From positions 121,336 through 185,335 of the forward strand of contig JBHLNF010000007.1 of NCBI GenBank assembly GCA_048937405.1: a stretch of DNA of 64,000 nucleotides, read 5' to 3'. Below the pieces are notes generated by a model. It was not told the origin of the DNA. It did no database searches and was given only the letters and a program-made list of their open reading frames with translations. Shown here piece after piece: positions 6,944 to 28,820 of the stretch (within the stretch, counting starts at the first letter, position 1; each line of letters opens with the position of its first letter). This DNA is from Promethearchaeota archaeon (GTDB lineage: Archaea > Asgardarchaeota > Lokiarchaeia > Sigyniarchaeales > SOKP01). The position numbers and the translations under genes are program-made.

Positions 6944-7056
6944 CGCTCAGGGTGGGATTTTCCAAAATATGCTAAATGCAACATTTTTTCGAACCCACGA
7001 ATCCATTGGACACCGGTTTAGCAGACCGGCGCTCTACCAGGCTAAGCGACCTGAGC
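6944..7056 (-). tRNA. tRNA-Ser(GCT) with a 30-nt T-loop (59/60) intron at 6958-6987
   Basis: Acceptor GCTCAGG/CCTGAGC, loop CT-GCT-AA, long variable arm, relaxed BHB (UUCG/GGAA) with intron stem AAAUGU/AUAUUU. Confidence 0.92.
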
Positions 7057-7150
7057 AGGAACTTAAAAAGAAATGCTGTAATTGAATTAATTTAAATTCA
7101 ATTATTTTATAAATAACAATTAAAAACTTTAATAATTTTTGTTTTGATAC

Positions 7151-7340
7151 TTACTCTTTGCCTTCTTTAATATCCTTTTTAGACCAATATCCTCTCGGTG
7201 GAGTGTTAATATCCCAGATTTTGCACCATTTACATATAGTATGGTCCGAGACTTGATTTTTTTTGGCAATTTCTGTCTTCGACATCTTCCATACAAGTTC
7301 TTTAAGTTATTCCTTGTTTAATTTAAATTTTCTTTTTGAA
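7151..7340 (-). pseudogene. Remnant of an HTH (PPRGYW-type) DNA-binding domain
   Basis: Translates SKRKFKLNKE*LKELVWKMSKTEIAKKNQVSDHTICKWCKIWDINTPPRGYWSKK..., with an in-frame TAA. Confidence 0.65.
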
Positions 7341-25766: not shown

Positions 25767-26330
25767 ATGTCAGAAAAGGCAGCAAATTCAGAAGAAGTTT
25801 TTTCCTTCAAGTGCCCAACTTGTAAAAATGGTATAATTGCCATTAAAAAAGCGATATATGACTTGCCAGATGGGGATAAAATGCTGATATTAAAATTTGA
25901 ATGCAATTCCTGTAATTTCCATAAAAACGATATAATCCCCTTAACTACAAATATGGAATCGGGAATTATGACCTTAAGAATTACCGAAGAGAATGACCTA
26001 AAATCTAAGATTTACCGATCACCTACAGGTAAATTAGAGATTCCTGAACTAGATATAATAGTAGAACCGGGTCCCAGAGCTGATTTCTATTATACTAACG
26101 TACAAGGTATATTATTTCGATTTGAACAGGCAGTCTCAATATATAGAAATAGCCTTGAAAAGAATGATCCAGCTAAAAGTGAAATGGATGAACTTTTATC
26201 TACTTTAAAACATGCTATAGAAGGTAAATTTAAGTTTACTTTAAAATTGACAGATTTCCAGGGAGGTAGTTATATCATTCCTGAAGATAAATCAAAATAC
26301 ACTTTCAAGAAAATTCAGAAAGAGGAATGA
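25767..26330 (+). CDS. zpr1: ZPR1-type zinc finger protein
   Basis: CPTC...CNSC, IPEL.I.VEPG, TNVQG, LTDFQGGSYI. Confidence 0.9.
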   Translation: MSEKAANSEEVFSFKCPTCKNGIIAIKKAIYDLPDGDKMLILKFECNSCNFHKNDIIPLTTNMESGIMTLRITEENDLKSKIYRSPTGKLEIPELDIIVEPGPRADFYYTNVQGILFRFEQAVSIYRNSLEKNDPAKSEMDELLSTLKHAIEGKFKFTLKLTDFQGGSYIIPEDKSKYTFKKIQKEE

Positions 26331-26465: not shown

Positions 26466-27542
26466 ATGCAGCGAGAGATAAAACACTACAATAGGTGGTT
26501 AACTAATAATATTCAAGGTTATCTAAAAGGACTTAAGGGTGAAATCAGGGTCCTATTTGAACCATATATAGAATTCAAAAAAATGGGTACACTTTTTGGG
26601 CTTTACAAAAATTACATTCCAACTAATAGGATGCATAAATATTGTAGAAAAATTATAGCTAAAAATACTTTAGATAAAATGCGTGCTAAATTCAAAAAAT
26701 TTATTGAAATTTGGATAGAAAAATACCCACATTTGGTTCAGTCATTATTATTAGTACAATCTTATATTATGAAGTATATTGATGAATATGAGGTAATTCT
26801 TCAACCAAAACCTTCCCCAGATTATCAAATGTACAAATTCCATCCTGCTTTTAAAAGAAACTATTTTGAAATAATCGATACATATGAAAAAGCATATTGG
26901 CTTGGATTTCTATTTGCTGATGGATGGATTGCAATAGAACATAAGAAATCTGGAGATTATTATCGAATGGGGCTCCAATTATCATATAGCGATAAAAGAG
27001 TTGTTAAGGAACTTTGTAAATGTATAGGATTAAATCCCAGTTTTATTAAAATTCGTCTAGTAAAAAGTGATTTTAGTACGAAAATATATCCTATAAGTGA
27101 AATTAGATGGGGAGATCAGAAAATGGCTCAAGATCTATTAAAAATAGGGATGAGATATGAAAATAATGAAGAAAAAGGAAGACGAGTTAAAACACCAAAA
27201 CTTCCAAACTTAAAAAACCGAAATTTGATGCTAGCATTTTTATTAGGTTTCTATGATGGTGATGGCACCCTTGGATATGATAAAAAGACTGGTAAAATTC
27301 GTCCTAGAATTGCTTCCTCAGATATTGAATTTTTACGACAAATAAAAAATTTTTTTGGAATTAAATACAAAATTTCTTCCACTGCGATGTTATATTTCAA
27401 TATTAGAAAAAAGAAAATGATTAAAACAAGAGGGAGTAGACTTGATATTGAAAAAGAGATTTTTAAAAAAATGTTAAGTGTATATAAAAAAAGTCTTGAA
27501 AGGAAAAGAGTTTCATTAGATTATTTTAATGGTACTCATTAA
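26466..27542 (+). CDS. Free-standing double-motif LAGLIDADG homing endonuclease-like protein
   Basis: AYWLGFLFADGWI and AFLLGFYDGDGTL motifs. Confidence 0.88.
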   Translation: MQREIKHYNRWLTNNIQGYLKGLKGEIRVLFEPYIEFKKMGTLFGLYKNYIPTNRMHKYCRKIIAKNTLDKMRAKFKKFIEIWIEKYPHLVQSLLLVQSYIMKYIDEYEVILQPKPSPDYQMYKFHPAFKRNYFEIIDTYEKAYWLGFLFADGWIAIEHKKSGDYYRMGLQLSYSDKRVVKELCKCIGLNPSFIKIRLVKSDFSTKIYPISEIRWGDQKMAQDLLKIGMRYENNEEKGRRVKTPKLPNLKNRNLMLAFLLGFYDGDGTLGYDKKTGKIRPRIASSDIEFLRQIKNFFGIKYKISSTAMLYFNIRKKKMIKTRGSRLDIEKEIFKKMLSVYKKSLERKRVSLDYFNGTH

Positions 27543-27640
27543 AATTGAATAAAATAGTTATTGATATAAGATATTTTTTTTATAATTTGCATTCTTTCTA
27601 ATAGATATAATATCAAAAAACGTTTTAGAAGAAGGTTTAT

Positions 27641-28820
27641 ATGACAATAAAACGAGTAGGAATTTTAACAGGCGGCGGAGTCATGTCTAAGATTTAACTT
27701 AACTGCCGTTTACTGTCCTGGGTTAAATTCTGTTCTCTATGGAATCATGCTTAAAGGTTATGATGCAGGAATTGAATGTGTTGGGATCCTGAAAGGATGG
27801 AAAGGATTTGTGGAAAATCAAACAATTCCACTTGATATTGCAGAACATGATGATTTACATACTGTTGGTGGAACAATTTTATATACAAGTAGAACAAATC
27901 CCTTTAAAAATGTGAGTTCAAAAGAGCAAAAAGCAAAAAATTTAACCAAAAAATTTGAAGAATTAGGAATTGATGCTCTAATTGCTATCGGTGGAGATGA
28001 TACTCTTGGAGTAGCTGATACTATATATAAGTTTGGAGATGCTAAGGTAGTTGGAGTGCCCAAAACCATTGATAATGATTTAGCAGGGACTCATTATACA
28101 TTTGGATTTTGGAGTGCTGTACAATTAGCTTCAAATACTCTCGATAATCTTACTACTACTGCTCATTCACATCAGAGAGTATTTGTTGTAGAAATTATGG
28201 GAAGGGATGCTGGTTTTTTAACAATGTATAGCGGAATTTCTGCAGGAGCAGATATAATCTTAATTCCAGAAACTCCATTTGATTTAGAAAAAGATATAAT
28301 AAATGTTTTGAAAAATCGAGTTGATGCAGGATATAAATATCACATTATTGCTACATCAGAAGGAGCATATCCTAAATTAGAATCGCTAAATAGAGATTTT
28401 AAAACTATTTCAAAAGAAACAATTGATAAACTACCGAAGGATACATATGGAAATCCTTTATTGGCTAAATTAGGTATGTCTAAAATAATTGTCGATGAAC
28501 TTGATTTAAGAGATGATTTAAAAGAAAAATTTCAAGAAAATGGAGTAGAATTTGAGTGTAGAAGTGTAGTACTTGGTCATACTATGCGAGCAGGAACTCC
28601 AAATTCATTTGATAGAATATTAGGGTTAAGATTTGGATTAGCAGCAATGAAACTTGTTTTAAACGGTGAATTTGGGAATATGGTCTCTCTTCAAGGAAAT
28701 AAAATTCAAACAGTTCCCTTATCAGAAGGAGTTAAAAAGAAATATATCACCACCGAGAATGATAAAATGGAATTAAGAGATCTTTTAGTAAAAATCCGCT
28801 ATTTATCCAAACAAAAATAA
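27641..28820 (+). CDS. pfp: PPi-type 6-phosphofructokinase, join(27641..27680,27712..28820), 382 aa after removal of a 31-nt intron
   Basis: Exon 1 MTIKRVGILTGGG + spliced GAC + CPGLNSVLYGI is in frame with ORF 27747..28820; GGDDT and PKTIDND indicate PPi specificity; MGRDAG, LGHTMR. Confidence 0.92.
27681..27711 (+). other. 31-nt bulge-helix-bulge (tRNA-type) intron in the pfk mRNA
   Basis: Helix GCGG(27675-78)/CCGU(27706-09), bulges AG|U and UU|A, internal and exon stems; removal restores the GAC (Asp) codon. Confidence 0.88.

Follow-up and report, generated by a model that had tools for sequence, protein, structure and literature searches.

A free-standing LAGLIDADG endonuclease gene beside an ORF-less BHB-type mini-intron in the pfk gene of Lokiarchaeia: a candidate for collaborative homing in archaea

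The window, that is, the whole 64,000-nt stretch of Promethearchaeota DNA analysed here, contains on its plus strand a ZPR1-like zinc-finger gene (25767-26330, Pfam jr-ZPR1), which is the conserved upstream neighbour of the locus, followed by a 358-aa LAGLIDADG ORF (26466-27542), a spacer (27543-27640) and pfk. The pfk gene starts with a short exon 1 (MTIKRVGILTGGG + G, 27641-27680), is interrupted by a 31-nt insert (27681-27711) and continues with exon 2 (27712-28820). The LAGLIDADG ORF has no internal stop and ends 98 bp before the pfk ATG (27641) and 138 bp before the insert (27681), matching the original prediction of an intact two-motif ORF about 100 bp before pfk and about 140 bp before its intron. 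Because it has its own start and stop between the ZPR1-like gene and pfk, the ORF is in no intron or intein, as had also been predicted.

In intron-less relatives, the ZPR1-like gene stands directly before pfk, and this arrangement represents the empty site. There, ZPR1 ends no more than 270 bp before the CPG codon in 81 of the 83 alleles measured, leaving no room for a nuclease gene. The nuclease gene is optional and patchy at a fixed site, since empty-site alleles exist along with decayed copies (G122, G005, G070, G138 and G097).

The encoded protein has an all-helical N-terminal domain (residues ~1-125) followed by the LAGLIDADG core, and matches Pfam LAGLIDADG_3 over the cut-off (E 8e-9). 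Motif 1 (YWLGFLFADG, 26895-26924) and motif 2 (FLLGFYDGDG, 27237-27266) are both acidic at position 8, placing the putative catalytic residues at D152 and D266, and both motifs are kept in the pfk-adjacent orthologues listed. The predicted model has a pLDDT of 94.6, and its best Foldseek matches are the monomeric two-motif LAGLIDADG enzymes bI3, I-AniI, I-DmoI and I-SceI (E 4e-8 to 1e-5, 11-20% identity). With a dN/dS of 0.17-0.32 against orthologues, the gene is under purifying selection. By motifs, fold and selection, it is predicted to encode a free-standing two-motif LAGLIDADG homing endonuclease capable of DNA cleavage.

Without removal of the insert, the pfk frame ends at TAA 27695. When 27681-27711 is removed, GGA G is joined to AC TGT, and a 382-aa PFK with TGGGDCPG results. 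Two other junctions were tried and rejected, as removal of 34 nt loses one Gly and a shift by one base gives Tyr. The insert has bulge-helix-bulge (BHB) geometry and carries no ORF; its central helix pairs GCGG (27675-27678) with CCGU (27706-27709), and its bulges are AG/U and UU/A, the slash marking the splice point here and below. The genome encodes EndA and RtcB (PF01974 matches twice and PF01139 once, each time over the cut-off). We take the insert to be an intron that would be spliced by EndA and RtcB at the BHB motif.

An insert at exactly this position (site 1) is found in 30 of 122 family alleles. It is 30-32 nt long and belongs to one of two sequence types, 1a (as in this genome) and 1b. 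In both types, two 3-nt bulges enclose a 4-bp helix, and each splice point follows the second base of its bulge. The central helix has 3.95 of 4 pairs in type 1a and 4.0 of 4 in type 1b, and flanking pairs form only in the true register; type 1a can also pair its central helix in the -3 register, but without the flanking helices. A C-G to U-A compensation spans the exon-intron border in type 1b. In type 1a, 97% of cells pair vs 30-56% in slid controls, a comparison that is favoured by the structure having been derived from the same type 1a sequences.

Could the insert be left unspliced? Then pfk would be a pseudogene, or be translated from ATG 27747 into an N-terminally truncated protein, or be read by frameshifting. 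Single-sequence folding of this genome's intron gives nothing better than shuffles (z -0.5 to -1.3), the lowest-energy fold being in another register than the BHB, and annotation pipelines report a 357-aa product, as the unspliced reading would have it. On the other hand, this pfk is the only copy in the genome, and its dN/dS is 0.05-0.13 in 8 of 9 pairs. All 34 intron-bearing alleles conserve the exon-1 residues, the downstream frame is kept, BHB pairing is maintained with compensation, and the occurrence of 30-, 31- and 32-nt inserts at one site excludes a fixed frameshift. We give an unspliced insert next to no credence. If splicing proceeds as proposed, annotation wrongly gives many Lokiarchaeia pfk genes a truncated N-terminus.

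Two features of the PFK coding sequences were noted in passing. The intron-bearing pfk genes of G002, G027, G142 and G118 (L038, L039, L140 and L139) have no ATG at the expected start; what follows a GGTGA motif there is an ATA or ATT-like codon, which suggests non-canonical initiation. In the window, the PFK has GGDD and PKTIDND (27985-28085), residues usually linked to pyrophosphate-dependent enzymes.

A second intron site lies further downstream in pfk. Intron 2, a 30-nt BHB-like intron with a G-A mismatch in its central helix, sits at IAIGG-G/DD in L104 (G009), L038, L042, L105 and about 20 other relatives. The site is empty in this genome (IAIGG-G/D, near window 27997), and the exon flank around it is of the carrier type, which is found in 17 of 22 carriers vs 3 of 104 non-carriers. 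Such a flank at an empty site hints at a precise loss of intron 2. Intron 2 is as patchily spread as intron 1; a link of the nuclease to it was considered and found unsupported, as intron 2 is missing here and elsewhere often has no nuclease next to it. Displaced pfk fragments were also seen, one including intron 2 on another contig (L046:4931-5221, G002:C5) and one repeating the 3' end of pfk and lying downstream of it (L111:6333-6434).

Adjacency of nuclease and intron in this one genome is by itself weak evidence of a connection, because the genome has six paralogues of the nuclease family. Co-occurrence was scored in a census of 122 Promethearchaeota family alleles of pfk, 30 intron-bearing and 92 intron-less, as an intact, frameshifted or remnant nuclease within ~200 bp of pfk. 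Order-level outgroups were excluded from the counts, and G006 was left out for an N gap over site 1. A nuclease, intact or remnant, stands beside 8 of the 30 intron-bearing and 1 of the 92 intron-less genes (Fisher p 4.5e-5, kin not being independent), so the pairing is more than chance. The eight comprise four intact genes (G000, G020, G073 and G146), a frameshifted one (G122) and three remnants (G005, G070 and G138). Six further contigs that were found via the nuclease (L108, L109, L114, L115, L217 and L223) all have the intron, and every intact or frameshifted pfk-adjacent nuclease (11/11) is beside an intron-bearing allele. Among independent pairs on the host tree, eight differ in the nuclease; the intron difference runs parallel in 6.5 and in the reverse direction in 0.1 (sign test, median p 0.03).

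The lone intron-less case, G097, has a deleted nuclease remnant whose closest resemblance is to the long form found next to pfk. The pfk of G097 reads TSGGDCPG, which is unique among the 92. In this one case, the allele has the look of a target changed by point mutation.

The reverse pairing is loose, as 22 of the 30 intron-bearing genomes lack an adjacent nuclease and in many of them no close copy was found anywhere. These counts bear on whether the protein could be a domesticated RNA maturase or a WhiA-like DNA-binding regulator that aids pfk splicing or expression. The maturases bI3 and I-AniI are among its top structural matches, one database labels a relative 'WhiA', and some orthologues have a C-terminal HTH-like tail. 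However, a helper would be missing beside pfk in most of the genomes that have the intron, and the gene is optional rather than fixed, with frameshifts and deletions recurring in it in the manner of selfish genes. Moreover, both catalytic aspartates are kept, and WhiA is absent from the top 50 fold matches. A helper role is very improbable.

At the nuclease position before one intron-bearing pfk (L038:2937-3365, G002), there is a PD-(D/E)xK/Vsr-like remnant, recognized by eye with no Pfam match. It possibly reflects nuclease turnover, and together with the nuclease-free carriers it may mean that other nucleases have driven the intron too.

A different reading is that nuclease and intron occupy a hotspot independently: mini-introns would spread otherwise, by an RNA-level route, other nucleases or gene conversion, and the ZPR1-pfk gap would simply collect genes. 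That most intron-bearing alleles are without a nuclease, that intron 2 spreads with no consistent neighbour, that the genome holds six nuclease paralogues, and that unrelated genes (radical SAM, Rce1-like protease, nitroreductase-like) are found in the gap as well are all in its favour. Yet the gap is empty in nearly all of the intron-less alleles measured (81/83), and the same pairing recurs at argG and porG, as described below. Independence also predicts that most nuclease copies be beside intron-less alleles, which are 75% of alleles, whereas 1 of the 9 family cases is. The census thus already disfavours this reading, which we hold to be improbable, and the spacers described next also speak against it.

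The spacer in the window (27543-27640) is a nuclease-associated replacement of the pfk leader, 'type A'. Nuclease-type spacers (A and B) are found on 18 of 34 intron-bearing alleles and never on the 92 intron-less ones, and 8 of these 18 alleles no longer show the nuclease gene. Five other alleles (G012, G120, G125, G143 and G144) have the intron with a native spacer and no nuclease; their spacers are mostly near-identical to that of an intron-less relative, with the differences lying mainly around the intron. An intact nuclease without the intron was found in none of the family alleles and further nuclease contigs. Introns with or without a nuclease, and intact nucleases always with an intron, are what is expected if the break is made at the intron site and repair sometimes reaches the nuclease.

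Other comparisons also point to movement of the intron. On the distal-pfk tree, intron 1 takes 23 changes for its 30 carriers vs 26.9 (22-30) for shuffled labels. A strongly supported trio consists of this genome (type 1a and intact nuclease), G036 (neither) and G070 (type 1b, intron 2 and a nuclease remnant), and two genera that match each other at 81-82% in their pfk DNA share 31-nt introns without a single difference. Against the closest intron-less sister, identity is lower at -37 to +38 nt (0.75-0.85 vs 0.86-0.91 in controls) and recovers further out, so that exon 1 and the first 25-40 nt of exon 2 look co-converted. A serine codon of the AGY kind, 17 nt downstream, is present in 7 of 20 intron-bearing vs 0 of 65 intron-less alleles, in two genera, and is better read as a shared donor tract. 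Close to the junction, some of the exon similarity among intron-bearing alleles may come from selection on the exon-exon RNA helix instead of co-conversion. Overall, the intron behaves like mobile DNA whose tract is centred on the GGG/D codons.

Both intron types, 1a and 1b, occur with both nuclease sub-clades, so partners have been exchanged. The original prediction was that gene and intron are correlated among relatives and that both spread together. The correlation is borne out by the census. Joint spread stands in part: the pairing is non-random, but the intron often moves alone, as nuclease-free carriers and native spacers indicate, and partners have been swapped.

The break need not be at the intron. 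A real homing nuclease could cut nearby, in the ZPR1-like 3' end, the spacer or exon 1, with immunity arising from the insertion or from variant bases, and the intron would then merely ride in the repair tract. Free-standing nucleases often cut far from their own gene (PMC2988022). Intron-bearing alleles have unusual wobble bases (GGC GGC GGA GAC), which could confer immunity without the intron, and some nuclease alleles show an identity dip in the ZPR1 3' region (0.81 vs 0.87), too noisy to be used for placing the cut. Relatives of the nuclease are also found beside genes with no visible intron (aspS, B12 mutase subunit and mtnA/DUF1848). However, the pairing is kept across two intron types and two nuclease sub-clades, and no intact nuclease was found beside an intron-less TGGGD allele. 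Intron-only alleles with short two-sided tracts and native spacers place the break near the intron, and the TSGGD exception in G097 points to the same codons. We find a passenger intron unlikely.

We think it probable that the locus is an archaeal case of collaborative homing in which the partner is an mRNA intron of BHB type that has no ORF, the cleavage step being deduced from the alleles. The nuclease target would be at or very near the Gly-Gly-Gly/Asp-Cys-Pro-Gly codons at the pfk start, as the polarity of the tract suggests. When DNA of two lineages meets, the nuclease would cut the intron-less allele, and repair from the donor would always copy the 30-32-nt intron, while the donor itself would be protected by the intron interrupting its target. 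Repair that extends far enough upstream would also copy exon 1, the spacer and the nuclease gene, and short repair would leave intron-only alleles, a pattern that is seen. The host could tolerate the intron if it is spliced out of the mRNA by EndA and RtcB. With the site filled, decay or replacement would await the nuclease gene, and the intron would persist.

Collaborative homing has a phage precedent in cyanophage S-PM2, where the free-standing nuclease F-CphI adjoins the psbA group I intron (PMC6083498; reviewed in PMC2988022 and PMC10448857). In both systems, a conserved gene is interrupted by an intron without an ORF, and the nuclease gene lies next to that intron but not within it; the psbA intron is thought to interrupt the target of the nuclease that mobilises it, as we propose for pfk. 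The differences are in host, enzyme and intron. The pfk locus is on a cellular archaeal chromosome rather than in a phage; its LAGLIDADG enzyme, with cleavage predicted, takes the place of an Endo VII/DHHRN-type one; and its 30-32-nt BHB intron would need host EndA and RtcB, whereas the psbA intron is a self-splicing group I ribozyme.

BHB introns in protein genes also have a precedent, the intron in cbf5 pre-mRNA of Crenarchaeota (PMC2738675), which as of 2020 was called the only BHB intron reported in archaeal mRNA (PMC7714728). The cbf5 and pfk introns are alike in being short BHB introns in protein-coding sequence with gains and losses among relatives. pfk differs in its Asgard lineage, in being a central metabolic gene and in having two intron sites, with two sequence types at site 1. 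The pfk intron is also linked to a neighbouring nuclease, and no such link was seen reported for cbf5.

The LAGLIDADG enzymes of archaeal rRNA introns (I-DmoI type) home to the intron-less allele. The pfk nuclease has in common with them the superfamily, the fold and the intron class. Their ORFs are inside the intron, in contrast to the pfk nuclease ORF, which is upstream of its intron and has a protein gene as host. BHB introns of Thermoproteales 16S rRNA are reported to encode such enzymes (PMC4496867). T4 seg/mob intronless homing (PMC2988022) resembles the pfk case in its optional, patchy, decaying gene between conserved genes and in flank co-conversion. Immunity comes from target sequence variants for seg/mob (PMC2988022) and apparently from the intron at pfk, although the G097 TSGGD allele looks like the classical seg/mob-type route.

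A literature search on Lokiarchaeia with LAGLIDADG and on archaeal mRNA mini-introns, incomplete in coverage, returned nothing on this pairing; in what was searched, collaborative homing is described in phages with group I introns, and archaeal collaborative homing with an mRNA intron of the BHB type was not found. A 30-base intron encodes nothing and cannot self-splice, and its route of spread was open. That intact nucleases were found only beside introns suggests a route by which introns this small get into archaeal protein genes, and bears on how introns came to enter such genes for the first time in the lineage closest to eukaryotes. The mechanism is concrete and can be tested at the bench with one enzyme and one predicted target of 20-30 bp. 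Nature offers the sensitive alleles, intron-less TGGGD, and candidate-resistant ones, the two intron types and TSGGD. The nuclease family is also a source of new meganuclease scaffolds, the targets of which can be inferred.

The nuclease family has up to eight matches per genome, and its pfk-adjacent members group together in the tree, with weak basal support (87/53). A sister branch is found directly before argG, a gene that a strict 30-nt BHB intron interrupts at SGGL/D (L106:2845-2874); the LAGLIDADG gene there is 53% identical to the window's nuclease, and this argG case was the single locus returned by a metagenome pattern scan. Another branch is before porG, the 2-oxoacid:ferredoxin oxidoreductase gamma-subunit gene, split at GGQ/G. 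Here two different 29-30-nt BHB introns occur in two hosts (L102:3228-3256 and L218 near 5000), each downstream of a related LAGLIDADG gene. A further paralogue, in this genome (G000:C7:997250-998597), faces rpo10, which has a 31-nt insert before its HVDL motif. No intron was seen beside other branches (mtnA/DUF1848, yjbQ, the DUF2229 operon, aspS and the B12 mutase subunit), so the nuclease-intron pairing is common, not obligatory.

We lean slightly towards a more general proposal, namely that Loki-type Asgard archaea harbour a family of free-standing LAGLIDADG nucleases, whose branches have each come to target a Gly-rich active-site motif in the early part of a different core gene (pfk, argG or porG). 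With ORF-less tRNA-type mRNA introns they would form two-part selfish elements, an engine for planting protein-spliced introns in protein genes. If true, such an engine is at work in the closest prokaryotic relatives of eukaryotes.

Some family members have unusual architectures or surroundings. Giant LAGLIDADG ORFs of 1239-1308 aa that have acidic repeats at their N-termini are found at L100:710-7443 (G073) and in L103 (G033), preceded by P-loop ATPase-like and M50B-peptidase-like genes in a three-gene cassette. In the window itself, a frameshifted HTH-like tail on the minus strand (6945-7306) is related to the C-terminus of the nuclease family (HMM E 6e-9). It lies just upstream of a tRNA-Ser(GCT)-like sequence, recognized by eye and not called by ARAGORN, with an insert in its T arm.
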